Shown here one piece after another: positions 40,588 to 63,337 of a DNA stretch of 64,000 bases (position 1 is its first letter; every line of letters begins with the position of its first letter). The position numbers and the translations under genes were made by a program. Source of the stretch: a virus (taxonomy: Duplodnaviria; Caudoviricetes). The notes beneath the pieces are model-generated. The model did no database searches, had not been told where the DNA came from, and worked only from the letters and a program-made list of their open reading frames with translations. The stretch lies in the IMG/VR virus record IMGVR_UViG_3300008740_000001, positions 139,860 through 203,859 of that record. One strand, written 5' to 3'.

Positions 40588-41547
40588 ATGGAAGACTGGA
40601 ATGATTTTAAGCGCATGATACGAGAGGTGGCGGAACCTACCCCCTTCAAGAGCGCAGCACAAAAGAGATATAAGAAGCTAAGAAAGAAGAACGATATTTA
40701 CTCGTCACCGGCTGGACACAAGAATCTGAGCAGTGGAAGTCCGTTTAGCGGAAAAACCCAACGAGCCGGAACTGACAGGCTGCGCTTCGAAGAAGAAGTT
40801 GATCCAAGCAGTATCGACTTGTCTAGCTTTGAAATTCAGGATGATTTGGAACGAAACTTGTGGTCTGCGAAAGATGAACTTAAACCACTGATGCGCGAGT
40901 ATATGCTGAAGATCGCACTAGACTTTATCGAAAGTTTGGATATCCCAGTCAAGGTTACTGATATAAGGCTGACTGGTTCTATCGCAAATTTTAACTGGTC
41001 AAAGTATTCTGATGTTGATCTTCACATTATTGTAGACTTTTCAGATTATGGCGACGAGGAAGAACTTGTGCGAGGCTATTTCGATGGCAAGCGCATTGTC
41101 TGGAACAACAATCATGATATTAAATTAGCTGGCTATGATGTCGAACTTTACGTTGAAGGCGACGACGATGTGCATATTTCAACCGGCATGTATTCGGTTA
41201 TTCACAACAAGTGGTTAACGAAGCCAACAAAAGAAGAGAAGGCTATAGAGTATGACTTGATCCGACAGAAGGCTGCTGGCTTAATGGATATGATCGAAGC
41301 TGCACAAGAAACCTTGCAGCGCAAAGATTACAAAGCCGCACATTTGTTTTCTGAAAAACTAAAAGAGAAGATTCGCAATATGAGAAAGTGCGGCTTGGAA
41401 AAGGCTGGCGCCTACTCCGTTGAGAACTTGTCTTTCAAGGTACTAAGAAGAAACGGATACCTAGGCATGCTATCGGATGTTAAGAATAAGGCGTATGATG
41501 GACTGCACACGCACGATCCCCAAGGGGGCATAGTGATTAAGGTGTGA
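40588..41547 (+). CDS. DNA-polymerase-beta-superfamily nucleotidyltransferase
   Basis: LTGSIANFNWSKYSDVDLH (GS..DxD) and DVELYVE; start inferred at 40588. Confidence 0.75.
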   Translation: MEDWNDFKRMIREVAEPTPFKSAAQKRYKKLRKKNDIYSSPAGHKNLSSGSPFSGKTQRAGTDRLRFEEEVDPSSIDLSSFEIQDDLERNLWSAKDELKPLMREYMLKIALDFIESLDIPVKVTDIRLTGSIANFNWSKYSDVDLHIIVDFSDYGDEEELVRGYFDGKRIVWNNNHDIKLAGYDVELYVEGDDDVHISTGMYSVIHNKWLTKPTKEEKAIEYDLIRQKAAGLMDMIEAAQETLQRKDYKAAHLFSEKLKEKIRNMRKCGLEKAGAYSVENLSFKVLRRNGYLGMLSDVKNKAYDGLHTHDPQGGIVIKV

Positions 41548-41819
41548 GGTATAGCTATAAAATTGGCGACTTAGTAGAGATTCGGCACCCTTACGGTAGT
41601 GAGGAGTGCAGCTATACGATAGGGCTAATTTTAGCTGTCAATAGAATACCTATTGAGTCGCCTCTTAATTCCGAGCGTACAAAATATAAAATTTATTGGT
41701 TGACAAGTGCCGGAAAATATGTTAAAAATTGGATAGACGCTGAAAAGATTTCACTGATTGTTGCCGTGGAGGGCAACGAAGCAAGATACGCACAATATAG
41801 AGCAAAAGATGAGCGATGA
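41544..41819 (+). CDS. Small SH3/KOW-like family protein
   Basis: YKIGDLVEI..IGLIL..IYW. Confidence 0.6.
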   Translation: MRYSYKIGDLVEIRHPYGSEECSYTIGLILAVNRIPIESPLNSERTKYKIYWLTSAGKYVKNWIDAEKISLIVAVEGNEARYAQYRAKDER

Positions 41820-42147
41820 ATTTACAGTAGATGATAGACTCCTGACAATACAATTCTTGGGCGTACTACACACATGGCTGCAAGAGACGAAAGCAGAAAA
41901 AGAAAGAGAATTGGAACTATTGCAGTTGCAAGAGGGAATAGTAAAGATCATGTTCGCAAGAATTTCAAGGCCGGAGGATTTCCACACCGAAGAAGTCATT
42001 GAGGCCGGCGAGAAAGTATTCTCAGAGAACTGGGAAGAAATGCTAGAGCAAGAAATAAAGAAGCTGAATGAATCAGAGCCTCTCCCCGAAACCGAGAGGG
42101 ACAACATTATTGATTTTTCAGCATGGAAAAAAAAGGATGAGGACTGA
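41809..42147 (+). CDS. Hypothetical protein
   Basis: C-terminal NIIDFSAWKKK; start inferred. Confidence 0.55.
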   Translation: MSDEFTVDDRLLTIQFLGVLHTWLQETKAEKERELELLQLQEGIVKIMFARISRPEDFHTEEVIEAGEKVFSENWEEMLEQEIKKLNESEPLPETERDNIIDFSAWKKKDED

Positions 42148-42380
42148 TGACAATTAGAATAGGCGACTTGGTAGAGCACTGTGAATATCCGGGCTACCGA
42201 GGTATAGTGAGAGAGGTTCTCGCAACACGCGGGAATGGCAAGGCTCGTACCATAAAGGTTAGTTGGTTCCCTCCCCTGTCTGATGCATCTCCTAAGCAAC
42301 GCTGGCAAACAATGCACGTTGAAGGCACAACAAGCGTGTCGGTGTTGGATGTAAGGCAGATTTCAGCCTTGGGCACTTAA
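42147..42380 (+). CDS. Small SH3/KOW-like family protein
   Basis: IRIGDLV..RGIV..VSW. Confidence 0.6.
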   Translation: MTIRIGDLVEHCEYPGYRGIVREVLATRGNGKARTIKVSWFPPLSDASPKQRWQTMHVEGTTSVSVLDVRQISALGT

Positions 42381-42664
42381 TGATGGCTGGCATCGTCGGC
42401 GCCCTAGTACAACTTAAGAACTGGCAATCGTCAAAAGACGGGAAGTCTCAAAGTGGGATAATCCTCTCAAAGCCTTTGCCTGCATCGCGGTTGTATCATC
42501 ATGACTTTCTGGATGGTTATCGTCCAGATTGGGATCGATTTGGGTTCATGGAGCCGCACCACCCGGCCAACACTATGGATAACATGGTGCTTGTTTATTG
42601 GCCAAGCAATTCAACTGAGCGTTGGCACTTGATGAAAGATTTAGAATTTTTAAGTATGCCGTGA
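42380..42664 (+). CDS. Small SH3/KOW-like family protein
   Basis: VGALV..SGII..VYW..LEFLS. Confidence 0.6.
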   Translation: MMAGIVGALVQLKNWQSSKDGKSQSGIILSKPLPASRLYHHDFLDGYRPDWDRFGFMEPHHPANTMDNMVLVYWPSNSTERWHLMKDLEFLSMP

Positions 42665-42674
42665 TAGTTACTAT

Positions 42675-42971
42675 GTGGGTGACTGTGAGACTATCAAGCC
42701 AAAGAAGGGCGATTTAGTAAGGTGGATTTATGATTATGCTTTGTATGCAGCTGACGACAAAGGCAACGCTTGGCCTCACGATCCACAATATGAATACGGC
42801 GTGATCATGGAAGTTTCACACTCAGACCCACATGCCATAATAGTTTTTAGTACAACGACTAAGATGTGGCATGTTGCTCATATGGTTGACGACGACATCG
42901 AAATCATCAGCGAGTCCAGAAACAAGGTGGTGATTCCCACCGCCGAGGAGATCAAGAAGTATGAAAAGTAA
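42675..42971 (+). CDS. Small SH3/KOW-like family protein
   Basis: KKGDLV..YGVI..IEIISESR. Confidence 0.6.
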   Translation: MGDCETIKPKKGDLVRWIYDYALYAADDKGNAWPHDPQYEYGVIMEVSHSDPHAIIVFSTTTKMWHVAHMVDDDIEIISESRNKVVIPTAEEIKKYEK

Positions 42972-43047
42972 ACTTTTCGACGAGATCAGGGGCGAGAATG
43001 AGTTAAAAACTTTGCGCCAAAATTTTCCTCTTTGGCAGACAGGTAGG

Positions 43048-43076
43048 TTGACATGAACGCACAGGCGGGTTATAAT
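43048..43076 (+). promoter_or_regulatory. sigma70-type promoter (leaderless start at 43083)
   Basis: TTGACA-17-TATAAT. Confidence 0.75.
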
Positions 43077-43082
43077 AATGGT

Positions 43083-43271
43083 ATGAATTGGGATAGAATC
43101 ATAGAAGTGGGTGATTTGGTGAAGGTTGTGCCAAGCAGTTATACGCTTAGGGATGAAATACTTACAGGCATCGTGATAAAAAAGATGAAAACCTGCGGGT
43201 TTTTTATCGTTTATCATAATGGTATTTATCACCAAAACGTCCACCTTGAAGAAATGGAGAAGTATCCTTAA
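43083..43271 (+). CDS. Small SH3/KOW-like family protein
   Basis: EVGDLVKV..TGIV. Confidence 0.6.
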   Translation: MNWDRIIEVGDLVKVVPSSYTLRDEILTGIVIKKMKTCGFFIVYHNGIYHQNVHLEEMEKYP

Positions 43272-43483: not shown

Positions 43484-43801
43484 GTGGGCGATTCAAACAT
43501 AAAAAAGGGCGTGCTTGTGCGCCCTGTGGTATTTTTTAGTCAATGGCTGGGAGTAGTGTTGACCGACCCTGTGCAGTATGTGCCAACCGATAATGAACTG
43601 GAAATGGCCGGTTACGCGCCAACTCAAGAGTTTTATTGGGAAGGGGTCGAAGTTGTCAACGTATATTGGTTTACTGAGGGGATGGCCTCCGAAGAATTTA
43701 TAGACTTTCTGGAGGTAGTGTCGCCACCTGTTGACCACCTCGATGACCCCGATTTTGCTGAAAAAATGTTCAATTTTTACTGGACAGACGACGATGATTA
43801 G
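43484..43801 (+). CDS. SH3/KOW-like family protein
   Basis: KKGVLV..LGVV..VYW..LEVVS. Confidence 0.55.
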   Translation: MGDSNIKKGVLVRPVVFFSQWLGVVLTDPVQYVPTDNELEMAGYAPTQEFYWEGVEVVNVYWFTEGMASEEFIDFLEVVSPPVDHLDDPDFAEKMFNFYWTDDDD

Positions 43802-43834: not shown

Positions 43835-44323
43835 GTGAAAATTGTTTTTTTGCATGGACTGGAATCAAGTCCCAACTCGGCAAAGGTAAAATTTCTGCGC
43901 GAACAAGGTCACGAGGTGCTGGCACCCCGTCTTGATCGAAACGATTGGGAACAGTCTGTTATGGCGGCTCGTGATGCTATCACTGCTTTCCAACCCGATG
44001 TGGTCGTTGGCTCGTCTAGGGGCGGTGCTGTTGCTATGGTCGCAAGAGTCTCACCCATTCCAACAATCCTAATCGCACCTGCATGGAAGAAATACGCGCC
44101 TTGGGCCACCATCAGCGGGAGCACAGTGATTCTTCATTCTTCACAAGACTGGATTGTGCCCTTTGCAGACTCGGAAGAACTCGCCCGTACTTTCGGTGCT
44201 AAACTTTATGACGTTGGCGAGGACCATCGCATGAACGACCCAGAGGCACTTAGTGCCTTGGCTGTGGGCCTTGATTGGCAGGGACATGGCTGGTTTAGTA
44301 AAAATCTTCAAGATAACACTTGA
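43835..44323 (+). CDS. Alpha/beta hydrolase (YqiA-like esterase)
   Basis: FLHGLES, GSSRGG nucleophile elbow, D..VP, DH. Confidence 0.85.
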   Translation: MKIVFLHGLESSPNSAKVKFLREQGHEVLAPRLDRNDWEQSVMAARDAITAFQPDVVVGSSRGGAVAMVARVSPIPTILIAPAWKKYAPWATISGSTVILHSSQDWIVPFADSEELARTFGAKLYDVGEDHRMNDPEALSALAVGLDWQGHGWFSKNLQDNT

Positions 44324-44348
44324 CATTTGAATCTATCTGATATATATT
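44320..44348 (+). promoter_or_regulatory. sigma70-type promoter
   Basis: TTGACA-17-TATATT. Confidence 0.7.
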
Positions 44349-44356
44349 ATAGGTGA

Positions 44357-44623
44357 GTGACAAAAGATATGTCTGACCAACTGATAAATCACGCTAGCGG
44401 ATCGATGCCGCAGCTTACCCTTTTTGAGAGTGCCCAACTAGGACTAATGGCCTTCGTCGGAGGGCTAGCGATGGATGCCCAACTCGATGCCATTATCCCG
44501 ACTATCCGCGAATCAGAGCGTTTGAAGTTGGATGGCACTGTAACCCAACATGAAGTAGCTTTGCTAGACGCCTTTATTGCACAGGCGCTGCGCGATCTGC
44601 CTCCCGTTGCAGAGGATGTATAA
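44357..44623 (+). CDS. Hypothetical protein
   Basis: Downstream of promoter. Confidence 0.5.
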   Translation: MTKDMSDQLINHASGSMPQLTLFESAQLGLMAFVGGLAMDAQLDAIIPTIRESERLKLDGTVTQHEVALLDAFIAQALRDLPPVAEDV

Positions 44624-44898
44624 TGAAAACCGTTATTGTCGTTGACACTGACGATCCAAAGGGGATGGAGAGTACCCGGCGTATTGTGGACAACCTGTTG
44701 ACCACCTATCATCACCGCAGTATTGAAGCCGGTGATCCATTCTCTGGCAAGATCCAGTTCATCAAGCACTTGCGAGCATATGTAAAGTTCTGTGAGGAAA
44801 ACTGGCCCGATGACTGGCAAAATCAGATCGGCAACCTTAAGACCTCGAAGGGATACGCGGATACCCTCAAACTTTTCCAACGTGCAGGTAACCTGTGA
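44623..44898 (+). CDS. Hypothetical protein
   Basis: TAATG-coupled; GAGG RBS. Confidence 0.55.
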   Translation: MKTVIVVDTDDPKGMESTRRIVDNLLTTYHHRSIEAGDPFSGKIQFIKHLRAYVKFCEENWPDDWQNQIGNLKTSKGYADTLKLFQRAGNL

Positions 44899-45116
44899 GT
44901 CAGAGCCAGCACTACTATAATCCGCAAGTGGGCGATTTGGTGCGAATCATCGAGGGTACACACGATCCGAGCATGCCCGAAGATCGTATTGGTCTGATCG
45001 TGGAGATTCTGCAACAGGAACCGGGAGACGCCCCGCGCAGTCACGATACTTTTATGGTCAAGTTTGGCACCCGTACCTTGAAGTTCCACAAGATGTGGCT
45101 TGAAAAAGTCTCTTGA
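44895..45116 (+). CDS. Small SH3/KOW-like family protein
   Basis: QVGDLVRI..IGLIV..LEKVS. Confidence 0.65.
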   Translation: MSQSQHYYNPQVGDLVRIIEGTHDPSMPEDRIGLIVEILQQEPGDAPRSHDTFMVKFGTRTLKFHKMWLEKVS

Positions 45117-45167
45117 CATCTTTTTGACAAAAAACCCCTTGCACCTCGCGCTAGCCTGTGCTATATT
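45113..45167 (+). promoter_or_regulatory. Triple-box promoter copy 1
   Basis: TTGACA-5-TTGACA-9-TTGCAC-17-TATATT. Confidence 0.8.
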
Positions 45168-45192
45168 ATATACATGATTTACGGAGAGTGTC

Positions 45193-45525
45193 ATGTCTGA
45201 TTTTTATGTGAGCCGAATCGACGTTCGGGCTGGTGATCCTACTGCTGGCGAGCCCGCTGTTGTTGCAGAGGAGGTCGTCCTGACCCTCAAAGCGCCATAT
45301 CATGCTGCGGAGCGTAGTTACCAAAAGTTCCGCGCTTTGGGCATTGAGAACATTGGGCTGTACGAGTATTCTTTGAACAAAAAGTCTTACGCGGCTAGCC
45401 TCAAAGCGCAGAAGCGCAGGAAGTTCAAGAAGATCACGCTGGCTGACGTGGCAAAGGATTTGCAAGAGTTTATGGAGGAAGGCAAGCCCGATGCCGATCA
45501 AGAAACACACACTGAAAAGGGGTGA
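45193..45525 (+). CDS. Hypothetical protein
   Basis: GGAG RBS. Confidence 0.55.
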   Translation: MSDFYVSRIDVRAGDPTAGEPAVVAEEVVLTLKAPYHAAERSYQKFRALGIENIGLYEYSLNKKSYAASLKAQKRRKFKKITLADVAKDLQEFMEEGKPDADQETHTEKG

Positions 45526-45715
45526 TCTTGTTCGGCTTCGCACAGGCTGGCCCGAACATTGGCGTTATGGAATCGTGTTGCGAGTGAACAACCACAACCC
45601 TGAATGGCCACACTGTGATATACACTTTTTTCAAACACCAACATCAGAATCAAAACAATCTAACATCAATCAATATCTAACTGGACTGGAGAAGATAAAT
45701 GAGCAACACATTTGA
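45491..45715 (+). CDS. Small SH3/KOW-like family protein
   Basis: KRGDLVRL..YGIV. Confidence 0.6.
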   Translation: MPIKKHTLKRGDLVRLRTGWPEHWRYGIVLRVNNHNPEWPHCDIHFFQTPTSESKQSNINQYLTGLEKINEQHI

Positions 45716-45929
45716 AATCGGTGAGGCTGTCGTGGTCGATACCCGCAACTATTTGCAACACACAGAAGGCATCGTGATTGACGCATCATCGTCGGTCGAT
45801 GGGTGCAGCGAGGATATGTATACGGTCGAGGTCGAAAACCACGGTACGCATTTCTTCTATGGGTCTGATCTCCGAGCGGCAGCACCGGATGAACCTGAAG
45901 AAGAACCGGAGTGGAGGATTGCACTGTGA
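45699..45929 (+). CDS. Small SH3/KOW-like family protein
   Basis: EIGEAV..EGIV..YTVEV. Confidence 0.55.
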   Translation: MSNTFEIGEAVVVDTRNYLQHTEGIVIDASSSVDGCSEDMYTVEVENHGTHFFYGSDLRAAAPDEPEEEPEWRIAL

Positions 45930-46801: not shown

Positions 46802-46984
46802 ATGATTATCATTCCACTTGACAAACTTGAAAAACTACGAATCGAACAAGGCAAGGAGAGGCCAACCGACCGGCCCGCGCTGCAGTTGCCCGTGCCGGAG
46901 CATATGCCAGAAGCAATACACAGCGGGTCGGTTGAGCCGACCGAGGACGAAACCGGTGCTGCAATCATAGATTTCACCCTTTGA
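46802..46984 (+). CDS. Hypothetical protein
   Basis: GGAGG RBS; CTAGTTA upstream. Confidence 0.55.
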   Translation: MIIIPLDKLEKLRIEQGKERPTDRPALQLPVPEHMPEAIHSGSVEPTEDETGAAIIDFTL

Positions 46985-47035
46985 CATTCTCTTGACAACT
47001 TGGCTATTGACGCCACACCTCTCGCATGTTATATT
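46981..47035 (+). promoter_or_regulatory. Triple-box promoter copy 2
   Basis: TTGACA-5-TTGACA-9-TTGACG-17-TATATT; ATG 6 nt later. Confidence 0.8.
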
Positions 47036-47041: not shown

Positions 47042-47212
47042 ATGAAACGAAGAAAGACAAAGGCACCGAAGTCGCGCAACTGGCTTGCGGTACATGCACG
47101 AATGGACTTGGCCACTGGTGGCGAGCGCAAAGGCGCTGGACCGCACGGAGGCCGGAAGCAGCGTTATAGCCGCAAGGTAAAGCACAAGGGGCGTACTAAT
47201 GAAAGTCGGTGA
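47042..47212 (+). CDS. Small basic protein
   Basis: K/R-rich; leaderless start at 47042. Confidence 0.55.
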   Translation: MKRRKTKAPKSRNWLAVHARMDLATGGERKGAGPHGGRKQRYSRKVKHKGRTNESR

Positions 47213-47360
47213 TCTGATCATGTCGAAAGACGGATACCATACTGCGCTAGTGGTGAGTATTGTCGGAGCCGCTGCTTTCAACCGCATCAAAGTGCTGGTT
47301 GTTGGCAGCGACACGCCCGAAATGTGCGATCCGAGAATGTGGGAGGTTATAAGTGGATAG
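47199..47360 (+). CDS. Small SH3/KOW-like family protein (53 aa, not in ORF track)
   Basis: MKVGDLIMS..ALVV..WEVISG. Confidence 0.65.
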   Translation: MKVGDLIMSKDGYHTALVVSIVGAAAFNRIKVLVVGSDTPEMCDPRMWEVISG

Positions 47361-47481: not shown

Positions 47482-47561
47482 GAAGTATATTGGTAACTAT
47501 TGGAATCGTGGTAACGATTTTCGTGCTTTCGTTTGCTATTACATTGGCGCTAACAGCATGA
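47478..47561 (+). CDS. Small membrane peptide (27 aa)
   Basis: GTGA/ATGA coupling; GGAGG upstream; almost entirely hydrophobic. Confidence 0.45.
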   Translation: MRSILVTIGIVVTIFVLSFAITLALTA

Positions 47562-47758
47562 AAGTCGGTGATTTGGTGCGCCCAACAGACAGAAACCTTC
47601 TATCGGGAAGCCGACGAGTTGGCATTGTTGTGCATGTGGATACCGGATGGGATAACAAACAAGTAAGAGTAAAGTGGGACATCCCCTCGTGGATGGACGA
47701 TGAGGGTTTGGCGTCTGAATCTCCCGAGAACCTAGAGGTGATCAGTGAAAGTCGGTGA
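47558..47758 (+). CDS. Small SH3/KOW-like family protein
   Basis: MKVGDLV..VGIV..VKW..LEVISESR. Confidence 0.75.
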   Translation: MKVGDLVRPTDRNLLSGSRRVGIVVHVDTGWDNKQVRVKWDIPSWMDDEGLASESPENLEVISESR

Positions 47759-47906
47759 CTTGGTTCGACATTGGTTGACAGAACAACTCGGTATTATCCT
47801 CGATGTTGGGTTTCACAATATCAGGGTTCAGTGGCTAGATGAGATCGTCTTTGGTGTTGAAGAACTTGATCCTCGCAACGTGGAGGTGGTCAGTGAAGCC
47901 CGGTGA
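47745..47906 (+). CDS. Small SH3/KOW-like family protein (53 aa, not in ORF track)
   Basis: MKVGDLVRH..LGII..VQW..VEVVSEAR. Confidence 0.7.
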   Translation: MKVGDLVRHWLTEQLGIILDVGFHNIRVQWLDEIVFGVEELDPRNVEVVSEAR

Positions 47907-48081
47907 TCTGGTAAGGCATTCCGAGCCTGTGGACCGGGCTGAGTTTGATGCTGTTGGTGTTGTTGTTGAGATTCAAGAAGATTGGATGAAGAACTGGTCA
48001 AAAGTAAAAGTAATGTGGACCGGCCTTCAGGTTCCAGTATGGGAACCAATCCGCTGCGTCAAACTCTTTACATCCTCTTGA
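47893..48081 (+). CDS. Small SH3/KOW-like family protein
   Basis: MKPGDLVRH..VGVV..VMW. Confidence 0.7.
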   Translation: MKPGDLVRHSEPVDRAEFDAVGVVVEIQEDWMKNWSKVKVMWTGLQVPVWEPIRCVKLFTSS

Positions 48082-48681: not shown

Positions 48682-48685
48682 AGCC

Positions 48686-48740
48686 TTGACATTTACTTGA
48701 CAAGAAATGCCTTGCCATCTAGTGCAGGGCATGATATATT
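48686..48740 (+). promoter_or_regulatory. Triple-box promoter copy 4
   Basis: TTGACA-5-TTGACA-9-TTGCCA-17-TATATT; ATG 6 nt later. Confidence 0.8.
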
Positions 48741-49337: not shown

Positions 49338-49564
49338 TTAGTAAACTTAGCCGACAACCACGGCGCAGCTTTGCGCCCCGACGCAGCAAGGCCCCGAGAA
49401 TGGGGGATGTGGTGATCCATAAAGTTGATAAGTCTCTCGGTGTGGGTCTGGTTATGGAATGCTGGGGGATCGATTGCTTGGTTCAATGGGCCAAAACAAT
49501 CGTGGAGCCAGATCCATGCTGGCATCGCCGCGTCAAGCTAGAGGTGATTAGTGAAAGTCGGTGA
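49334..49564 (+). CDS. Small SH3/KOW-like family protein
   Basis: MGDVV..VGLV..VQW..LEVISESR. Confidence 0.7.
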   Translation: MISKLSRQPRRSFAPRRSKAPRMGDVVIHKVDKSLGVGLVMECWGIDCLVQWAKTIVEPDPCWHRRVKLEVISESR

Positions 49565-49748
49565 TTTGGTGATTATGCCGGGGTCGGGTATTGTTCCTGA
49601 AAGGCCAGCAATCGGCATTATAGTAACGCCCCGTGTCAACAGGGGAAAGACCCGCAGGACTGCCCGAATCGGTGTCATGTGGTCGGATGGCGATGGCGTG
49701 GATATGGAACCTTGTCACTGGCTGGAGGTGATTAGTGAAAGTCGGTGA
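49551..49748 (+). CDS. Small SH3/KOW-like family protein
   Basis: MKVGDLV..IGII..VMW..LEVISESR. Confidence 0.75.
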   Translation: MKVGDLVIMPGSGIVPERPAIGIIVTPRVNRGKTRRTARIGVMWSDGDGVDMEPCHWLEVISESR

Positions 49749-50019
49749 TTTAGTGGTTCAAGGCAATCGAGTCTTGATGATAAAGGGCAGTAAGCGCAAG
49801 TCGAAAATGATTGGTGTTGTTGTAGCGATCCGTGACATGCCGCCCGCCCGACCGGAAGAAACTGAAGTGTTGAGACAAATGATGGCTATGCTAGGGCGTC
49901 AGGTTGATGTGCTTTGGCCTAATGGCCATGTGTCTAAAAACTTTGCCGAGAACGGTTTAGAGGTTGTAACGTCCAAAGAAGAATGGCTGGAGGCTGTTAG
50001 TGACGTACAAGAAGGGTGA
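49735..50019 (+). CDS. Small SH3/KOW-like family protein
   Basis: MKVGDLV..IGVV..VLW..LEVV. Confidence 0.75.
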   Translation: MKVGDLVVQGNRVLMIKGSKRKSKMIGVVVAIRDMPPARPEETEVLRQMMAMLGRQVDVLWPNGHVSKNFAENGLEVVTSKEEWLEAVSDVQEG

Positions 50020-50206
50020 TTTGGTCGAAGTTAGGCGTATTCTGGGTGTGGGCGATGGGTTTCATCCACGGCGACGGGGCATAGTTCTGCAAACGACAGC
50101 GGCGATTTCTGACAACGATCCCAAAGGTGTTCTGGTGATGATCAACGACGGAGTTGAGGCTAGCGAGTGGTATGCTTGGCAACTTGAAATGATTAGTGAA
50201 AAGTAA
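50000..50206 (+). CDS. Small SH3/KOW-like family protein
   Basis: KKGDLVEV..RGIV..LEMISEK. Confidence 0.7.
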   Translation: MTYKKGDLVEVRRILGVGDGFHPRRRGIVLQTTAAISDNDPKGVLVMINDGVEASEWYAWQLEMISEK

Positions 50207-50260: not shown

Positions 50261-50437
50261 ATGAAAGAAGTTGATGTAAAGCTGAACACCGGGCAGATTG
50301 AGATGATCGAAGAAGCCTTGCAGCTATTGCGAGTAACTTATGACGGCAGCACTATCATTGGCAAGATCCGCCTGCGCGATGTGAAGTCGCTAGCAAGGAA
50401 GATGCACGAGGCGAAAGAGGACGCAGAAACGCCTTGA
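50261..50437 (+). CDS. Small hypothetical protein (58 aa, not in ORF track)
   Basis: GAGGTG RBS; CTACTTA upstream; stop inside the next promoter. Confidence 0.55.
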   Translation: MKEVDVKLNTGQIEMIEEALQLLRVTYDGSTIIGKIRLRDVKSLARKMHEAKEDAETP

Positions 50438-50488
50438 CACACTCTTGACAACTGAACTCTTGACAGGCTAGCCCGCAGATGGTATATT
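50434..50488 (+). promoter_or_regulatory. Triple-box promoter copy 5
   Basis: TTGACA-5-TTGACA-9-TTGACA-17-TATATT; ATG 6 nt later. Confidence 0.85.
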
Positions 50489-50494: not shown

Positions 50495-50725
50495 ATGATG
50501 ATTGGTGATCTAGTGCTGGTTCATTGGGGCAACAGCGACTATTCCGGCGCAGAGGGTGTCGATTGGGGTCGTTCCCCCGGCATCGTCATTGGCGAGGTCC
50601 GGTACTGGAATGAGGACGCCCGAGCCAGCAACTCGCCCGTGTGTGGCGATGTTGATCTATGGTTTCGTAACGAAAGAATCTCATACAATATCGGACGATG
50701 CGAGGTGATCAATGAAAGTGCCTAG
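50495..50725 (+). CDS. Small SH3/KOW-like family protein
   Basis: MIGDLV..PGIV..CEVINESA. Confidence 0.7.
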   Translation: MMIGDLVLVHWGNSDYSGAEGVDWGRSPGIVIGEVRYWNEDARASNSPVCGDVDLWFRNERISYNIGRCEVINESA

Positions 50726-50894
50726 CCTAAAGATTGGTGATCTGGTTGTTCGCACCTATGGAGAAGGACAAAGGCCGATGGCGCTCGTCGTTGGCCGGTT
50801 CAATGCGTTGATCGTAAAAGTAAAGTGGCTGGGCTCTGACATGATCGAAGATGTGAACAGTCAATATCTGGAGGTAATCAATGAAAGTCGGTGA
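50712..50894 (+). CDS. Small SH3/KOW-like family protein
   Basis: KIGDLV..VKW..LEVINESR. Confidence 0.75.
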   Translation: MKVPSLKIGDLVVRTYGEGQRPMALVVGRFNALIVKVKWLGSDMIEDVNSQYLEVINESR

Positions 50895-51078
50895 CTTGAT
50901 AACTCTCACATATGAGGGTGAACCACTTGATGATCGGGCTGTGGGCATTGTTACCTGTATTGATCCCGAAGAACTTGGCGACGACGAAGAAGTTGAAGTA
51001 TGGTGGATCGGTCATTTCACCGGCCACAGCAATCACTCAACATGGAATCTGGAGGTTATTAGTGATGCAAGTAGGTGA
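50881..51078 (+). CDS. Small SH3/KOW-like family protein
   Basis: MKVGDLI..VGIV..VWW..LEVISDASR. Confidence 0.75.
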   Translation: MKVGDLITLTYEGEPLDDRAVGIVTCIDPEELGDDEEVEVWWIGHFTGHSNHSTWNLEVISDASR

Positions 51079-51295
51079 CATAGTTCAGGGCGAAGCATGC
51101 AGCAACTTGGATGCTGTTGGCATCATTATATCGAAATCAACATCACCACCGTGGGCTGGAGGTCCAGACCGAATCGTGGTGTGCATAACAAAGAGCGCCG
51201 CGAACAATCATACAGACAAGTTTCAAGCAGGTAGTCACGCATCAACAAAGGTCAGTTATAATCTTTGGAAGGTCATTAGTCATGCAAGTCGGTGA
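51065..51295 (+). CDS. Small SH3/KOW-like family protein
   Basis: MQVGDIV..VGII..WKVISHASR. Confidence 0.7.
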   Translation: MQVGDIVQGEACSNLDAVGIIISKSTSPPWAGGPDRIVVCITKSAANNHTDKFQAGSHASTKVSYNLWKVISHASR

Positions 51296-51494
51296 TTTGG
51301 TGAGAAACTACATGACGGAACAACTGGGTACTGTTGTTGCTGAGTCGTGTCGCGTTACTGGTGGTAACGATACTGACGAGCCTCATAGTTTTCAAGTGCT
51401 GTGGACTACTACGGGCGATTTTGGAGGCGAAGTTGGGTCTAAAGAATGGACAGGCCCGACGTTTGTGGAGATATTGGATGATGATCGGTCTTGA
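51282..51494 (+). CDS. Small SH3/KOW-like family protein
   Basis: MQVGDLV..LGTV..VLW..VEIL. Confidence 0.75.
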   Translation: MQVGDLVRNYMTEQLGTVVAESCRVTGGNDTDEPHSFQVLWTTTGDFGGEVGSKEWTGPTFVEILDDDRS

Positions 51495-52142: not shown

Positions 52143-52397
52143 ATGACCGACGAAACTTATTCACACGTTGACTTGACACCCGAAGAACTCCGATTTTTGC
52201 TGATGATGCGCGAACTGGCAACTAACTGGGTTGAACTAGATTTGACTGAACGTGGCCGCGCATGTATTGACATGCTGGTGCTTGAAGGCTTGGCAGAACG
52301 CAGGAGTGAACAAGGCGCATGGGTGAACCAATGGCGTCTGACCCCATATGGTCAGATCGAAGCAGATAACCGTACTTGGCCTTCGGCGTTTGCTTGA
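52143..52397 (+). CDS. Small winged-helix-like hypothetical protein
   Basis: L..EGLAE...WRLTPYG pattern. Confidence 0.5.
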   Translation: MTDETYSHVDLTPEELRFLLMMRELATNWVELDLTERGRACIDMLVLEGLAERRSEQGAWVNQWRLTPYGQIEADNRTWPSAFA

Positions 52398-52448
52398 CAA
52401 ACACTTGACAATGATTCCGTTGACAACTGTACTCACAGATGCTATATT
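52394..52448 (+). promoter_or_regulatory. Triple-box promoter copy 7
   Basis: TTGACA-5-TTGACA-9-TTGACA-17-TATATT; ATG 6 nt later. Confidence 0.85.
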
Positions 52449-52454: not shown

Positions 52455-52634
52455 ATGAAGGTCGGAGATTTAGTCAAAAGCTATTCTGATGGTCGTATCG
52501 GAATGGTAATGGAAGAAGAAATATATCAAGGGCTTCCCGGTCAGTGGGTCGAATACTTTGATGACCGAAATGATTGGAAATGGTATTCTTATGATGAGCG
52601 TTTCGACGTGGAGGTGATCAGTGAAAGTCGGTGA
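52455..52634 (+). CDS. Small SH3/KOW-like family protein (59 aa, not in ORF track)
   Basis: MKVGDLVKS..IGMV..VEVISESR. Confidence 0.7.
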   Translation: MKVGDLVKSYSDGRIGMVMEEEIYQGLPGQWVEYFDDRNDWKWYSYDERFDVEVISESR

Positions 52635-52836
52635 TCTGATTGCATGGACTTGGCAACTCAAAGCGGATAGCTGGGAGTCTCACAGGTTCACAGGAGTAGT
52701 CTTAGAAGTGGAAGAAATCACCGACTCTATTGACGAGTTTCTGTATACGATCCTCCGCGTGGTGGATAACACAGGCATGGCGACTACTGTTCGTAGCGAT
52801 ACGACGAATCTGGAGGTGGTCAGTGAAAGTCGGTGA
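52621..52836 (+). CDS. Small SH3/KOW-like family protein
   Basis: MKVGDLI..TGVV..LEVVSESR. Confidence 0.75.
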   Translation: MKVGDLIAWTWQLKADSWESHRFTGVVLEVEEITDSIDEFLYTILRVVDNTGMATTVRSDTTNLEVVSESR

Positions 52837-52999
52837 TTTAGTACAGATTAGAGGCACTAGCATCGTGGATCTTGTTACGCGGGTTGAGACTGTCCCTAAC
52901 TTTTACAAGACGCTGCCACCTACATTATGGGTGATTCTGAATGGTCAGCCCGTGCCGTACAAAGCTAGCAAGCTAGAGGTCATCAATGCAACCCGGTGA
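52823..52999 (+). CDS. Small SH3/KOW-like family protein
   Basis: MKVGDLVQI..LEVINATR. Confidence 0.7.
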   Translation: MKVGDLVQIRGTSIVDLVTRVETVPNFYKTLPPTLWVILNGQPVPYKASKLEVINATR

Positions 53000-53249
53000 T
53001 CTTGTCGAAATCACGCGAGCATCGGTCGGCATCCCAGCCGGAACGGTTGCTCTGATCATTGAGAAGTACGAAACAGGCGCGTCATTGGATGACTGGCAGG
53101 CGACGATCTTTGTCGTTTGGCCGACTGGCGAAGTTGGCAAGCGTGGAGCGCGACGATACCTTGCGCGGGATCTAGATGTGATCAGCAGACCCTTGAAAAG
53201 TAAACTTGTAGCTCCGCTTCAGACAGAGGTTCCGGGCAAAAATGCTTGA
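52986..53249 (+). CDS. Small SH3/KOW-like family protein
   Basis: MQPGDLVEI..ALII..VVW..LDVIS. Confidence 0.7.
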   Translation: MQPGDLVEITRASVGIPAGTVALIIEKYETGASLDDWQATIFVVWPTGEVGKRGARRYLARDLDVISRPLKSKLVAPLQTEVPGKNA

Positions 53250-54636: not shown

Positions 54637-54804
54637 ATGATCGGAGCATTGGTCAAGCCGAAGATCGCATCGAAGGGTTGTCGCACCGGGATCCATATCG
54701 TGATGGAATACCGGGTCAGCAAGTCAGGCGAGCGAGTAAACTTTGCCGGGAACCCCGACGAGTGGCACAACCTAGAAAACTTTGAGATCGTGAGTCGAAA
54801 GTGA
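54637..54804 (+). CDS. Small SH3/KOW-like family protein
   Basis: MIGALV..FEIVS. Confidence 0.5.
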   Translation: MIGALVKPKIASKGCRTGIHIVMEYRVSKSGERVNFAGNPDEWHNLENFEIVSRK

Positions 54805-58017: not shown

Positions 58018-58052
58018 GAGTAACCTTTCTGAGAACTGAGAGAGAAAAACGC

Positions 58053-59442: not shown

Positions 59443-59812
59443 AGTGTCGAGAACAGAGATCGAGACGTTTATGACACCGGGCAAGTTATATATGCTTCGC
59501 GGTGTCAACAAAAACAAGAAATGGAACAGAATGGTGGTACATAAGGGATACGGCGACAAGGCCCAGCTATTCCTAGGCGAGTATCGTAGCTACCACAACT
59601 GTGACTTTTATGGTGATGGCGAGGTATTTCTTTGTGTATCAGTCACCCCGTCCGAAAAGCTGTCAGGCTCTCCGAGCAGCTATACACAGTATTGGACACA
59701 GGCATATGCAGACCTGCTAGCACCGAACGGGAAGATCGTCACCCTGCAACTAGCAGGAAACAAGACAAAGTTCCGAGAGGTCAAGAGCAAGAAGCCGAGG
59801 ACACAAGAGTAA
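59420..59812 (+). CDS. Hypothetical protein (start probably 59471)
   Basis: MTPGKLY..GEVFLCV. Confidence 0.55.
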   Translation: MRLTRNSKVSRTEIETFMTPGKLYMLRGVNKNKKWNRMVVHKGYGDKAQLFLGEYRSYHNCDFYGDGEVFLCVSVTPSEKLSGSPSSYTQYWTQAYADLLAPNGKIVTLQLAGNKTKFREVKSKKPRTQE

Positions 59813-59818
59813 ACTTAT

Positions 59819-60076
59819 ATGCAAGTTGGAGACTACATCGAGGACAGGTATAGAAATGAATCGGGTGAGATTGTATTGATCACCAGTGGTTTTATTGTCG
59901 AGACTAATGATAATGAAATAACATATTTTTGTACCAGTCATTCCGACGAACGCTATGCCATGTCAGGTAAAGTAGTCACACGCAACAAGAGAGCGTGTAG
60001 AGTCATATCAGATATTGGTGGTAAAGTGGATCGTAGTGGAGTAGAGTGGGATAAGGTGGATTTACAAAATGAGTAA
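59819..60076 (+). CDS. Small SH3/KOW-like family protein
   Basis: MQVGDYI..GEIV. Confidence 0.55.
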   Translation: MQVGDYIEDRYRNESGEIVLITSGFIVETNDNEITYFCTSHSDERYAMSGKVVTRNKRACRVISDIGGKVDRSGVEWDKVDLQNE

Positions 60077-61924: not shown

Positions 61925-62198
61925 CGACGAATTTGGCGGCTTTCCACCGGTGTCAAGTTACTACTTTTATGGAGGCGGAGGGAAGACGGCTTCCTATATT
62001 CGTCGAGAGCAAGTAGTTGAACTTCTGGGAGAGGATTCTAATCTTATTGGCCTTCTCAACCCTGCTATGGAACTAACACTGCCTGCCTGCGCGCTAACGG
62101 AAGAAGTAGAGCGCGTTCCGGTCTACGATTGGCAAGACGTATTTAAATTACTCACGGATTTAGGACGTGTTGCTACTACAAAAGAAGAGCTATTATGA
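61857..62198 (+). CDS. Hypothetical protein (start uncertain)
   Basis: In-operon ORF. Confidence 0.4.
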   Translation: MKPMKKQRNTYWITLPTGVREASDEFGGFPPVSSYYFYGGGGKTASYIRREQVVELLGEDSNLIGLLNPAMELTLPACALTEEVERVPVYDWQDVFKLLTDLGRVATTKEELL

Positions 62199-62419
62199 GC
62201 ATAGTCTACGTGAAAACAGGAAAAAATTTAGGTAAAAATTTTGGCGGAAATAATTTTCGCGATTTTGAGGGTCTTATTATGAAAAAGCGATTTCAATACA
62301 CATGTGCTCACTGCATGACCGGTATGGTTGCCGATTTGCCTGCTCGGTGTCCTGAGTGCCATCGGCTTTTATCGGTACCGGTTGAATCTAAAACAAAAAG
62401 GATGCCTAAAAAGACCTAA
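62195..62419 (+). CDS. Zinc-ribbon protein
   Basis: CAHC..CPEC. Confidence 0.5.
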   Translation: MSIVYVKTGKNLGKNFGGNNFRDFEGLIMKKRFQYTCAHCMTGMVADLPARCPECHRLLSVPVESKTKRMPKKT

Positions 62420-62774
62420 TTTCTCTCTATTTAAAAATGTGAGTGGGTCATGTGATATATCGGGTAGTCAGAAAAGTGCGTGGACGTTCCGTCAGGGCGA
62501 CCTAGTGGGCTTTGCTCCCAGTCGAGTGCGTCACTGGAATTATGATGATGGTTATATGTCATATGGATTGCCAGTGGTGCCCGGACCTAATCGTTCTAAA
62601 ACCAGCAATAAAGAATGTGTTGGCATCATTATCGAAGTATATGAAAAATATGGATATTATTCTTCTCGGTATTACAAGATCAAGTGGTCAGATACAGCAT
62701 ATTTTTCAAACGAAAAGCATGAAGATTTAATATTAATTTCTCACGGATATCAGCATAAGAAGACAGAAGATTAA
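62328..62774 (+). CDS. SH3/KOW-like family protein (start probably downstream)
   Basis: RQGDLV..VGII..IKW..LILIS. Confidence 0.6.
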   Translation: MPICLLGVLSAIGFYRYRLNLKQKGCLKRPNFSLFKNVSGSCDISGSQKSAWTFRQGDLVGFAPSRVRHWNYDDGYMSYGLPVVPGPNRSKTSNKECVGIIIEVYEKYGYYSSRYYKIKWSDTAYFSNEKHEDLILISHGYQHKKTED

Positions 62775-62794
62775 ATTTGCAAGCTAGTTAGTAT

Positions 62795-63037
62795 ATGGAC
62801 AACTGTATACCATCTGAGCAATATGCGAACTCATATCGAGTGGGCGATCTAGTGCAAAGTACTGTCAAGGGATTAGTAGACTTTGAATATAATTCTTATG
62901 GCAAAATTGGTATATTACTTGAATTGATTGCTTCGAAAGGCGCCGCTAAAGTTTGGTGGATCGGGGAATCGGGCTCAAAAACCGTTTTATGCCACACTTT
63001 TAAACTATTATCGAGGACAAATTCAGTAAAAAGCTAA
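62795..63037 (+). CDS. SH3/KOW-like family protein
   Basis: RVGDLV..IGIL..VWW. Confidence 0.6.
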   Translation: MDNCIPSEQYANSYRVGDLVQSTVKGLVDFEYNSYGKIGILLELIASKGAAKVWWIGESGSKTVLCHTFKLLSRTNSVKS

Positions 63038-63046
63038 TTAACGGGT

Positions 63047-63337
63047 ATGAGGCCAATTGGTGGGTGCCCTAGTGTTAGATTAGGGATTGGCGATTTGATC
63101 GTTAACCGAAAAACAAAAGAAATGGGAATTTTGCTACAAAAACACAAAGTTTTAGCAAACACTCCTCCAGATCAAGAACCAGACGAAAGGTGGTTCTGGG
63201 CTTGGAGAATCAAATGGAGTAAGGCCGGCCAGAAGACCGGAAACAAATGGGTCGATCAGTTGGATAAAACTAGGCCTGAAGAAACTATAATATCTGATAT
63301 CATGGAAGGAATTGTAGAACACTATAGTGCAGAATAA
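63047..63337 (+). CDS. SH3/KOW-like family protein
   Basis: IGDLI..MGIL..IKW. Confidence 0.6.
   Translation: MRPIGGCPSVRLGIGDLIVNRKTKEMGILLQKHKVLANTPPDQEPDERWFWAWRIKWSKAGQKTGNKWVDQLDKTRPEETIISDIMEGIVEHYSAE

Follow-up and report, generated by a model that had tools for sequence, protein, structure and literature searches.

Small genes and their junctions

The 64,000-nucleotide stretch of DNA analysed here (the window) belongs to the complete, circular-mapping 203,859-bp (~204-kb) genome of an uncultured marine myovirus, and its positions 41.5-63.3 kb lie in a variable part of that genome with predicted early promoters. An HMM iterated over all six-frame stop-to-stop ORFs of the entire genome recovered 22 related ORFs at E<1e-7; every one of them was on the plus strand and none on the minus strand. 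An independent profile, built from 322 sequences taken solely from other genomes and metagenomes, identified 25 family ORFs in the complete genome at E<1e-4, of which 24 were in the window (23 at 41.5-63.3 kb, plus 6066) and one lay just beyond the window end on the circular map (Table 1). The best minus-strand match of this profile had E=1.1. The motif family reported for 41.5-63.3 kb in the preliminary description is present there and stands far above chance. Seven further ORFs scored between E 1e-3 and 6e-2 (43053, 51065, 42380, 59819, 43484, 63047 and 23198); 51065, flanked by canonical junctions on both sides, is clearly a member, and 54637 (E 0.9) looks like one. An honest count from these scores would be 25 solid members and up to about 33 with about 8 borderline ones, slightly fewer than the 'about 35' paralogs first proposed. 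The three short ORFs included in that proposal (47199, 47745 and 52455; 53, 53 and 59 aa) were strong matches (E 1e-13 to 1e-15), and among its four outliers 6066 was confirmed and 23198 was borderline. The other two, 19803 and 30043, had only the N-terminal GD[IL]V word in common with the family (E about 3-10 against the HMM; hhalign probabilities of 19% and 1%, respectively), and their membership was unsupported.

Table 1. Family genes, predicted promoter modules and junction copies in the window ("external profile" is the independent profile).
Feature	Coordinates	Strand	Evidence
Family gene, isolated outlier, 77 aa	6066..6299	+	HMM E 1e-14; external profile E 3e-7
Family gene, 91 aa, divergent tail	41544..41819	+	HMM E 3e-16; external profile E 1e-7
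Family gene, 77 aa	42147..42380	+	external profile E 1.7e-5
Family gene, 98 aa, long loop, internal IEIISESR retained	42675..42971	+	HMM E 4e-15; L022 ortholog 46% identical
Family gene, 73 aa, THD..MP..R.G / LKFH subfamily	44895..45116	+	external profile E 7e-6; AF2 pLDDT 86.8, 5 strands; orthologs in 5 relatives
Family gene, 74 aa	45491..45715	+	HMM E 7e-15
Family gene, 53 aa	47199..47360	+	HMM E 3e-15; L019 ortholog 63% identical
Family gene, 66 aa, opens 3-gene run	47558..47758	+	HMM E 1e-18
Family gene, 53 aa, GTG start, 14-nt overlap	47745..47906	+	HMM E 3e-14; junction
Family gene, 62 aa, GTG start, 14-nt overlap	47893..48081	+	HMM E 6e-14; homologs P0019, P0220 60% identical
Family gene, 54 aa from ATG 49400; ATG 49334 also possible	49400..49564	+	external profile E 4.5e-7
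Family gene, 65 aa; cassette 90.7% nt to Tara contig L023	49551..49748	+	HMM E 7e-19; AF2 pLDDT 85.7
Family gene, 94 aa, inserted segment	49735..50019	+	HMM E 6e-11
Family gene, 68 aa, closes its run	50000..50206	+	HMM E 3e-15
Family gene, 76 aa, -10 box 6 nt before ATG	50495..50725	+	HMM E 7e-13
Family gene, 60 aa, 14-nt overlap	50712..50894	+	HMM E 1e-14
Family gene, 65 aa, IDPEE[LI]GD / NHS subfamily	50881..51078	+	HMM E 4e-18; subfamily n=16, loops conserved
Family gene, 76 aa, interior diverged, canonical junction either side	51065..51295	+	external profile E 3.7e-3; junction copies
Family gene, 70 aa, closes its run	51282..51494	+	HMM E 2e-13
Family gene, 59 aa, -10 box 6 nt before ATG; L012 match 81% nt, cassette-limited	52455..52634	+	HMM E 3e-13
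Family gene, 71 aa, 14-nt overlap	52621..52836	+	HMM E 8e-16
Family gene, 58 aa, 14-nt overlap	52823..52999	+	HMM E 3e-12
Family gene, 87 aa, long-tailed, TRAS.G.P.GT / RRYL.RDL subfamily	52986..53249	+	HMM E 2e-14
Family gene, long loop, start uncertain (62328-62505)	62439..62774	+	external profile E 7e-5
Family gene, 80 aa	62795..63037	+	HMM E 3e-14
Borderline candidate	42380..42664	+	external profile E 1.2e-2
Borderline candidate, N-terminal half only	43053..43271	+	external profile E 1.4e-3
Borderline candidate	43484..43801	+	external profile E 2.3e-2
Possible member, C-terminus FEIVSRK	54637..54804	+	external profile E 0.9 only; by eye
Borderline candidate	59819..60076	+	external profile E 1.8e-2
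Borderline candidate	63047..63337	+	external profile E 3.6e-2; hhalign probability 6%
Borderline outlier	23198..23443	+	external profile E 5.5e-2; hhalign probability 0.2%
Predicted promoter module, three -35-like boxes + TATATT, heads run 47042-48081	46980..47035	+	
Predicted promoter module, heads operon ending in run 49400-50206	48685..48740	+	
Predicted promoter module, heads run 50495-51494	50433..50488	+	
Predicted promoter module, heads run 52455-53249	52393..52448	+	
Junction, non-family basic 56-aa gene (ends NESR-stop) to family gene 47199	47185..47222	+	
Junction copy (SD + GTG start + upstream stop); extra-cassette site in strain L026	47731..47768	+	
Junction copy	47879..47916	+	
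Junction copy	49537..49574	+	
Junction copy	49721..49758	+	
Junction copy, ATG variant	50867..50904	+	
Junction copy, degenerate	51268..51305	+	
Junction copy, exact 25-mer	52607..52644	+	
Junction copy	52809..52846	+	
Junction copy, ATG variant	52972..53009	+	

The members, about 25-32 in the region, are single-domain proteins of 53-98 aa. A conserved junction of 25-38 nt links neighbouring genes within runs and carries three overlaid readings: the upstream protein's final strand and tail (L-E-V-I-S-E-S-R-stop), a near-perfect Shine-Dalgarno sequence (SD; G-GAG-GTG-ATC) about 6 nt upstream of the next start, and the GTG/ATG start and first four codons of the next gene (M-K-V-G-D). Because the junction holds the next start and first codons, neighbours overlap by exactly 14 nt, as was found for 72 of 97 adjacent family pairs (7 loci). 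The junction 25-mer occurred 6 times versus 0 expected, and there were ten 38-nt copies. Its Glu codon was GAG in 36/36 copies versus 39% genome-wide (p 2e-15) and its Val codon GTG in 23/35 versus 21% (p 1.5e-8), while the synonymous sites of MKVGD vary where there is no upstream gene (AAG and GGA at 52455). The conserved C-terminal (L/V)EV(I/V)S(ESR) is thus largely a nucleotide-level signal, namely the SD and the overlapping next start, and such a DNA signal accounts for much of the constant scaffold originally described.

Since the most strongly conserved alignment columns are exactly the junction-coded ones, the family could itself be largely an artefact of dual coding, with unrelated ORFs alike only in the first 7 and last 8 residues that the junction encodes. 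When these ends were removed, the interiors of 7 of 21 window members scored below 10 bits against the relatives' profile, 3 of 21 being at noise level; the other 14, however, scored 10 bits or more, as did only 2 of 1050 shuffles, and the family resemblance therefore exceeds the shared termini. Strong HMM matches that lack the junction (6066, 41544 and 62795), the G-D, G-[IV]-[IV], V-x-W and final-strand pattern retained where genes do not overlap, and a common fold predicted for two divergent subfamilies (pLDDT about 86) also argue against an artefact, which we consider very improbable.

Predicted sigma-70-type promoter sites numbered 52 versus 21 expected, in support of the strong promoters claimed earlier, with about 10 near-perfect ones in 47-55 kb and a strong one at the head of each run; the promoter modules with three -35-like boxes form a second repeat class in the region. 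The region turned up in no RNA run. Judged from these signals, each run would be transcribed early by the host RNA polymerase as one message, and ribosomes finishing one gene would restart on the next (translational coupling), such that any cassette dropped into a run would be expressed.

Predicted fold, age and turnover

AF2 models of two divergent subfamilies (pLDDT 85.7 and 86.8) had an identical five-stranded topology, and structure prediction thus supports the suggested SH3/KOW/Tudor-like barrel as the family fold. Fold matches included Spt5/NusG KOW, Tudor/chromo, R67 DHFR, NdhS, PsaE and Mind bomb (VIA Z 6-7.2); ribosomal eS4/eL14/uL24 KOW domains and an ssDNA-bound PWWP were, with Spt5/NusG KOW, among the best. 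The scores (Foldseek E>0.06, VIA Z about 7) are of the order expected for any small and common fold. The PDB sequences nearest to the family profile were MIB1 (E 0.0013), uL24 and NusG, and in a large library the profile matched multi-repeat SH3_15 and KOW proteins. Pfam and PHROG gave 0 matches for the family; the Pfam models for KOW, the Mind bomb SH3-repeat and UBE2O SH3-C were not reached by any member even at E 1. Grouped at 50% identity, the family falls into 909 clusters, every one of metagenomic origin and without a name. It is undescribed, with no named homolog or solved structure; a degenerate form of the junction occurs in at least 119 IMG/VR stretches.

Several of these fold matches, and the basic character of 6 of 21 members (pI>8), would suit an alternative in which the architecture is the same and the barrels are nucleic-acid or translation/transcription factors, not protein binders. 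They would then be stand-alone KOW/Sm-like modules binding RNA, the ribosome, Rho or RNA polymerase, and might for instance compete with the NusG C-terminal domain. We regard this as unlikely, given that acidic proteins (pI 4.1-6) make up 12 of 21 members, with net charges as low as -12, that Pfam KOW and Sm models found nothing in the family, that both AF2 models lack the Sm-type N-terminal helix, and that the very different loops of the subfamilies argue against one common ligand class.

Paralogs within the genome were at most 39% identical, so the copies are not recent duplicates, and the 'expansion' of the preliminary description was not a recent one. They represent old, distinct subfamilies that evolve under purifying selection, each keeping conserved loops of its own: subfamily-specific loop motifs are retained at 45-60% overall identity, and the sole measurable ortholog pair gave a dN/dS of 0.07 at a dS of 0.39, both of which indicate that the genes are real. 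The loops are variable in that they differ among subfamilies; being conserved inside each, they do not show hypervariability of the arms-race kind.

The family was not static across relatives. Genomes with DnaE 65-73% identical held 10-28 family matches apiece, and when interiors alone were compared across seven genomes the 143 members fell into 23 shared subfamilies and 73 singletons, with shuffled order. Individual cassettes are common to otherwise far more diverged genomes, with their edges at the junction: cassette 49541-49755 was 90.7% identical in contig L023, in which the remaining shared DNA was at most 82% identical and the shared modules were in a different order. Such identity could stem from unusually strong constraint and not from transfer. 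A strain contig (L026), 99.97% identical over 20 kb, carried an additional cassette, a novel one of 58 aa, placed precisely between two junction copies, although this variant is a single metagenome scaffold with a small chance of being a chimeric join through the 26-nt repeat; the Logan contigs show no more than that assemblies break at junctions. The phage encodes a RecA/UvsX-like recombinase and an SbcCD-like nuclease, and neither a reverse transcriptase nor a tyrosine integrase (IntI-type tyrosine recombinase) was found in the complete genome.

The free variation in content among relatives, the preponderance of singletons (over half of the members in seven genomes) and the near-identical strain that manages with or without one cassette raise the possibility that the cassettes are chiefly passengers, selfish or neutral, spread and kept expressed by the junction while their proteins do little for the phage. 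The low dN/dS of the ortholog pair, the retained loop motifs, the intact reading frames of all copies, and strong promoters and SDs that would make expression of useless proteins costly all speak against such passengers, and we think this quite improbable.

Proposed role and comparison with known systems

On balance we favour, as somewhat probable, junction-chained, early-expressed and recombining barrel cassettes that serve as binding modules. The junction may act as a portable homology patch for the recombination system of the phage itself, with its RecA/UvsX-like recombinase and SbcCD-like nuclease, at which recombination would delete, insert and exchange whole genes in frame, supplied by a pan-genomic reservoir of at least 900 subfamilies. 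By analogy, each barrel would be a small binding module acting early in infection, the weakest step of the proposal, and subfamily-specific loops would recognise one host or phage macromolecule each. The modules might help in host takeover or counter-defence and form an accessory repertoire that depends on the host; the earlier idea of a binder library directed against defence systems, ribosomes or RNAP is plausible.

Integrons likewise have arrays of small genes that move individually, mostly lack promoters of their own and are expressed from a common upstream promoter, a conserved recombination sequence bounding each gene, and a large environmental pool. The phage, however, has no attC hairpin or IntI-type recombinase; its exchange would be general homologous recombination, and the translation signal that forms its repeat is located within coding sequence.

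The host-takeover module of Bacillus phage SPO1 is a cluster of about 24-26 small early genes whose small proteins act on host machinery, several having known targets. Both are dense blocks of small early genes with many strong host-type promoters and ribosome-binding sites (predicted in the phage), but the SPO1 genes are mostly mutually unrelated and have no common junction, whereas the phage array reuses one fold (the SPO1 module is mentioned in bioRxiv 10.1101/569657). The LSm-like fold early proteins GoF, MotB.1 and Frd.2 of Tevenvirinae (Kim et al. 2025, PMC12152347) are also small, very dissimilar in sequence, of largely unknown function and alike in a predicted SH3/Sm-type barrel. The N-terminal helix typical of Sm proteins is missing from the phage models, and the Tevenvirinae proteins number three, as against tens of copies per genome in junction-linked arrays. 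KOW domains (NusG/Spt5, uL24, eS4; PF00467) and the Mind bomb SH3-repeat and UBE2O SH3-C domains (PF18346, PF23044) are similar-sized five-stranded SH3-like barrels with a first strand K-x-G-D-x-V and later strands G-x-V ... V-x-W; unlike these domains, the phage proteins are stand-alone, viral, and outside NusG or ribosomal proteins.

In the hyperplastic regions of T4-type phages, modules are shuffled through the PeSL (promoter-early stem-loop; Arbiol et al. 2010, PMC2839356; Comeau et al. 2014, PMC4122927). There too, a short conserved regulatory motif recurs among early genes that are small, variable and mostly unknown. Close relatives differ by indels and replacements whose ends fall at the motif, and homologous recombination at it has been proposed. 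The PeSL is an intergenic terminator and promoter, whereas the phage junction is an in-coding translation signal (SD, start, stop and fixed 14-nt overlap) and so would exchange genes one at a time, in frame, inside one operon; the genes swapped at it, unlike those at PeSLs, are members of a single protein family. A closer counterpart of PeSLs than the junction could be the promoter modules with three -35-like boxes.

Family membership, spread and predicted fold

The ORF listing contained a dense series of plus-strand ORFs of 53 to 98 aa that start with M-K-V-G-D-L-V or a close variant and mostly end in L-E-V-I-S-E-S-R. Starting from 13 copies, an HMM iterated across all stop-to-stop frames of the complete genome settled on 22 ORFs at E < 1e-7, every one of them on the plus strand. 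An external profile, for which only other genomes and metagenomes supplied the 322 sequences, retrieved 25 ORFs at E < 1e-4 (24 in the window and one 2 kb past its end on the circle), seven further ORFs at E 1e-3 to 6e-2, and its earliest minus-strand match at E 1.1. The preliminary description had counted about 35 paralogs; 25 are solid and the total may reach about 33, a large family if not quite of the size first given. Three short ORFs that had been included (47199, 47745 and 52455) proved to be strong members. Among four proposed outliers, 6066 was confirmed, 23198 was borderline, and 19803 and 30043 were unsupported, having only the opening GD[IL]V word in common with the family; hhalign against the family gave 19803, 30043, 23198 and 63047 a probability of <=19%, so none of the four is accepted as a member on sequence. 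Because a repeated DNA junction encodes the termini that members share, relatedness was tested on the interiors alone: a profile of relatives' interiors gave at least 10 bits for 14 of the 21 window interiors versus 2 of 1050 shuffles, and the family alignment held no conserved stretch of 7-10 columns. Judged by sequence, the family homology is real, though thin in the middle of the protein, and the HMM, the external profile and the interior test bear out the array as first observed.

Among the candidates scored from a set of 5.8 billion sequences, over 1157 proteins matched the family profile at E <= 0.01, and the family amounted to 909 representative clusters at 50% identity, metagenomic and mostly marine. 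Its homologs were all metagenomic and unnamed, and the ESM Atlas clusters were 100% viral; among the small homologs, an MKVGDLV-like start was present in 199 of 237 and an E-h-h-[SN]-E-x-R end in 148 of 237. In 50,697 GenBank phage records no counterpart emerged, either with two consensus-like members in tblastn (nothing at E 1e-3, only noise at E 10) or with 5 kb of the region in blastn. Pfam and PHROG scans of 10 members returned nothing meaningful (no PHROG match at E < 0.006), and a full-text literature search with the N-terminal word and related descriptions found no paper on the barrel family.

The proposal that these proteins form a five-stranded SH3/KOW/Tudor barrel is supported by the predicted structures and their fold matches. 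AlphaFold2 modeled gene 49551 from the family alignment at pLDDT 85.7; a second alignment, with the divergent 44895 subfamily at its head, gave a model at pLDDT 86.8. In both models the elements come in the same order, with four long strands leading to a helix of one turn and a short final strand, and DSSP assigned to both a 3-residue turn before the last strand and no N-terminal helix; the two divergent subfamilies are thus predicted to be alike, and the fold appears homogeneous as far as tested. Foldseek and VIA-align matched exclusively SH3-like small barrels (TM-scores 0.55-0.65, Z 6-7.2), including Spt5/NusG KOW (TM 0.5-0.6, VIA Z up to 7.2), Tudor, chromo, R67 dihydrofolate reductase, PWWP, UBE2O SH3-C, NdhS, PsaE, HspQ and Mind bomb repeats, scores that are typical of a common small fold and have no bearing on function. 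The KOW motif would share the five-stranded SH3-like barrel with the phage family, but it lies within NusG/Spt5 or ribosomal proteins, whereas the phage proteins stand alone at 53-98 aa. The T4 LSm-like proteins GoF, MotB.1 and Frd.2 combine a bent five-strand sheet with an N-terminal alpha-helix that is absent from both phage-family models.

By sequence, the nearest solved protein was Mind bomb 1 (MIB1; E 0.0013), followed by uL24, eL21 and NusG. Matches of the family profile in a library of 1.84 billion proteins also included multi-repeat SH3_15 and KOW proteins, among them a 1319-aa protein with 8 SH3_15 stretches (E 5.6e-21 over 14 stretches). Three library proteins matched by the profile (P0121, P0127 and P0141) are long cellular proteins of many SH3_15 (Mind bomb-type), KOW or UBE2O SH3-C repeats. 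These matches hint at a distant link between the phage family and such repeats; in Pfam scans of 10 members, the Mind bomb SH3 repeat (PF18346) went unmatched, and hmmscan of 10 members against Pfam-A gave zero matches to KOW (PF00467) at E up to 1. If these results hold, a very large protein family with a predictable fold has no entry in Pfam or PHROGs and no counterpart in cultured-phage records or the literature searched, and would make up a substantial, structured part of viral dark matter.

A coding junction between neighboring genes

Alignment of the DNA upstream of the starts showed that adjacent family genes are joined by a junction that reads, with small variations, CTG GAG GTG ATC AGT GAA AGT CGG TGA in the upstream frame and GTG AAA GTC GGT GAT in the downstream frame. 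The upstream E-V-I codons are GAGGTGATC, complementary to the 16S rRNA 3' end and about 6 nt before the next start; that start (GTG or ATG) falls inside the upstream S-E codons, and the downstream G-D codons supply the upstream stop TGA, for an overlap of exactly 14 nt. Six matches to the 25-mer form, with up to 3 mismatches, lay in the window versus 0 in 100 shuffles, and a repeat search returned ten 38-nt copies. Exact and degenerate junction patterns were used as queries for related loci, and at least 119 IMG/VR stretches, many of them on contigs of 185-203 kb, carried the degenerate form. The window and six related loci together contain 97 adjacent family pairs, of which 72 had the exact 14-nt overlap and 11 an ATGA overlap.

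Codon choice at the junction was fixed: the Glu of LEVIS was GAG in 36/36 copies versus 39% genome-wide (p 2e-15), the Val was GTG in 23/35 copies versus 21% genome-wide (p 1.5e-8), and the second Glu was GAA in every copy. Where there is no upstream gene (52455, 50495 and 41544), the MKVGD codons vary at their synonymous positions (AAG, GGA, GGC) and the residues G-D-L-V are kept. Synonymous sites frozen at junctions and drifting without an upstream gene indicate that the constant scaffold of the preliminary description is part translation signal and part protein: its protein component stands, but the conserved C-terminus is better described as a DNA junction in triple use, and the E-S-R tail is probably carried along by the M-K-V-G-D of the following gene. 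Two genes outside the family carry the same joint, so the junction is not confined to barrel genes (see table).

The geometry matches the general pattern of translationally coupled overlapping genes, with a Shine-Dalgarno (SD) sequence in the upstream ORF and a fixed start-stop overlap, which suggests that translation of a downstream cassette (one family gene between junctions) may be coupled to that of the upstream one. A conserved hairpin at the start codon was rejected, since a 5-bp form could be drawn by eye in some junction copies but was not conserved. If this account is correct, the arrangement is a compact form of gene modularity in which one short sequence serves as gene end, ribosome-binding site, next start and recombination homology; because the junction carries all four, any cassette inserted there would automatically be in frame and expressed. 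Both protein termini would then look conserved because the junction encodes them, a caution for motif-based annotation, as part of the family signature would be DNA-level.

Table. Coordinates of promoter modules, recombination genes and non-family genes sharing the junction (window positions unless marked)
Feature	Position	Remark
Promoter module	46980-47035	three TTGACA-like boxes
Promoter module	48066-48121	three TTGACA-like boxes
Promoter module	48685-48740	three TTGACA-like boxes
Promoter module	50433-50488	three TTGACA-like boxes
Promoter module	51490-51545	three TTGACA-like boxes
Promoter module	52393-52448	three TTGACA-like boxes
Promoter module	53245-53300	three TTGACA-like boxes
Promoter module	about 54301-54356	three TTGACA-like boxes
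Promoter module	about 54807-54862	three TTGACA-like boxes
RecA/UvsX-like recombinase and fused SbcD/SbcC-like nuclease	3516-4316; locus L003, 1-3150	phage's own recombination machinery
Non-family basic 56-aa protein	47042-47212	ends N-E-S-R-stop on start of 47199
Non-family 42-aa predicted membrane protein	47353-47481	starts inside E-V-I-S-G-stop

Cassette turnover among related phages

Within the genome, the best paralog of a member was 28-39% identical over at least 43 residues, with higher values only over stretches of up to 21 residues. Recent tandem duplication is ruled out by this divergence (<=39%), and what had been described as an expansion is instead a shuffled collection of old cassettes. 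Old subfamilies keep their own loop signatures across phages at 45-60% overall identity (IDPEE[LI]GD with NHS; VIMPGS with EP..W; QEDWMKNWSKVKV; THD..MP..R.G with LKFHEM; TRAS.G.P.GT with RRYL.RDL), and the sole ortholog pair with DNA in hand gave dS 0.39 and dN 0.028 (dN/dS 0.07). Family matches numbered 10, 15, 19, 21 and 28 in five relatives whose DnaE is 65-73% identical. When 143 members of seven genomes were classed on interiors only, they fell into 23 shared subfamilies and 73 singletons; the order of the shared subfamilies differed among the genomes, and few were present twice in one genome.

Single cassettes may also have been exchanged or gained intact. A related Tara contig (L023/L024) has nine modules in common with the window, in shuffled order and at 69-82% DNA identity, with the exception of a 215-nt block at 90.7% that is exactly cassette 49551, from the SD to just past the stop, and is flanked on both sides by unrelated cassettes. 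Cassette 52455 had an 81% match over 182 nt in another contig, where the best core match was 75%; both cassette-limited matches (215 and 182 nt) terminate at junctions. A 203,939-bp strain scaffold (L026) was 99.97-99.98% identical to the window over 20 kb with one indel, an extra intact 58-aa family gene (best match among the genome copies 41%) seated exactly between two 26-nt junction copies at 47735-47764; this variant was present in that scaffold only. A third assembly of the same phage terminates at the same junction, and Logan contigs of four DNA runs break at junctions, the sides of these joints being only 20-34 nt; the Logan joints may come from other phages with the same junction and were left out of the evidence. 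By its differing counts, shuffled order, cassette indel and single-cassette sharing, the family is not static, as the preliminary description required, and these comparisons point to the junction as a place of whole-gene loss, gain and exchange. The initial observation is confirmed, with both the fold and the dynamism of the family supported.

Specialized diversification systems did not account for the arrays. A diversity-generating retroelement was rejected: no reverse transcriptase (PF00078) was found in the genome, the arrays hold no long near-identical repeats, and the paralogs are at most 39% identical. An integron cassette array was rejected as well, since no IntI-type tyrosine recombinase (PF00589) was found in the complete genome (the control was positive in 14/14 genomes) and the only repeat classes were the junction and the promoter module. 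Given a RecA/UvsX-like recombinase and an SbcCD-like nuclease in place of these enzymes, cassette loss, gain and exchange would likely proceed by general homologous recombination on the short junction repeat. The model for such recombination is the PeSL-mediated shuffling of T4-type phages (PMC2839356, PMC4122927). A PeSL is a stem-loop terminator plus early promoter between genes, whereas the junction lies inside overlapping coding sequence, without hexamers or terminator; both mark the ends of indels or replacements between close relatives, as at the L026 cassette and the 215- and 182-nt matches. If correct, PeSL-type shuffling would be extended from transcription signals to translation signals.

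Promoters, genome setting and possible role

A consensus scan found 52 sigma-70-like sites in 41-61 kb against 21 expected; on the plus strand three were perfect and seven more matched 11/12 positions; every one had a 17-nt spacer, and an extended -10 was present in most. A module of 60-70 nt is common to about ten promoters in 47-55 kb; in it, three TTGACA-like boxes precede TATA(A/T)T, the third lying 17 nt before it and usually accompanied by TG, and 19 of 20 genome-wide matches to the core pattern fell inside the window. One module precedes each family run (47042-48081, 49400-50206, 50495-51494 and 52455-53249), the run at 49400-50206 being separated from its promoter by two other genes. 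These promoter sequences suggest early transcription by the host polymerase. The ATG starts at 47042, 48747, 50495 and 52455 lie exactly 6 nt past the -10 hexamer, without an SD, and may represent leaderless first operon genes, in contrast to the very strong SD of internal genes.

The IMG/VR record (203,859 bp, rated 100% complete) has the window as its last 64 kb (139,860-203,859) and, because its first 119 bases are repeated at its end, a circular map as assembled. Its long ORFs are nearly all on the plus strand. It encodes a tail sheath, portal, large terminase, major head protein, tape measure, DnaE-type polymerase, class II ribonucleotide reductase, GroEL-type chaperonin and RecA/UvsX-like recombinase, and is therefore a large uncultured myovirus; near-identical contigs came from marine metagenomes. 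The exact junction also occurs in MAG contigs labeled Halobacteriovorax sp. and Flavobacteriales (L032 and L034, PBIO01000016.1 and PBIO01000025.1; L033, DQKQ01000147.1), probably phage contigs binned in and no reliable clue to the host.

The family genes encode real proteins that are predicted to fold, are conserved individually, lie downstream of strong promoters of host type, and vary in repertoire. The simplest reading would make the barrels early binding modules, with a separate target for each subfamily, that act in host takeover or counter-defence, in keeping with other accessory early genes of large lytic phages. The main alternative is a nucleic-acid, ribosome or RNA polymerase role; predicted charge is diverse (pI 4.1-9.7; 12/21 acidic, 6/21 basic). 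Read as binding modules, the arrays would form a naturally occurring collection of small, stable, early-expressed barrels whose loops are specific to each subfamily; they would supply candidates for inhibiting host machinery or anti-phage defence, and some might be useful as scaffolds. A broader proposal, which we hold tentatively and would sooner doubt than accept, is that the junction is a dedicated integrase-free exchange system with which a clade of ~185-205-kb marine phages draws on a pool of more than 900 subfamilies of SH3-like binders for always-on early operons, each binder disabling one host defence or function, the whole forming a recombination-shuffled counter-defence repertoire.

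Several other features of the region were noted. The array region (44000-60000) had a G+C of 0.49-0.56, compared with 0.41-0.46 for its flanks (40-44 kb and 62-64 kb) and the greater part of the window. Between arrays, positions 48478-48681 encode a zinc-ribbon protein of 67 aa with four cysteines, which is conserved in the Tara relative L023 (69% nt) and reached threshold for no Pfam family. A 122-aa ORF (38792-39160) was 67% identical over 81 aa to an L023 gene with a precomputed Pfam match to PF26761 (Acb5), and itself had no Acb5 match in the Pfam copy searched; the name Acb5 is reportedly also used in a study of how viral proteins sequester nucleotide immune signals or cleave them. A MoxR-like AAA ATPase (AAA_5) and, after it, a DUF2201 metallopeptidase-like/VWA-like protein are encoded at 56846-59442, within the early region, and both are kept in the strain contigs.
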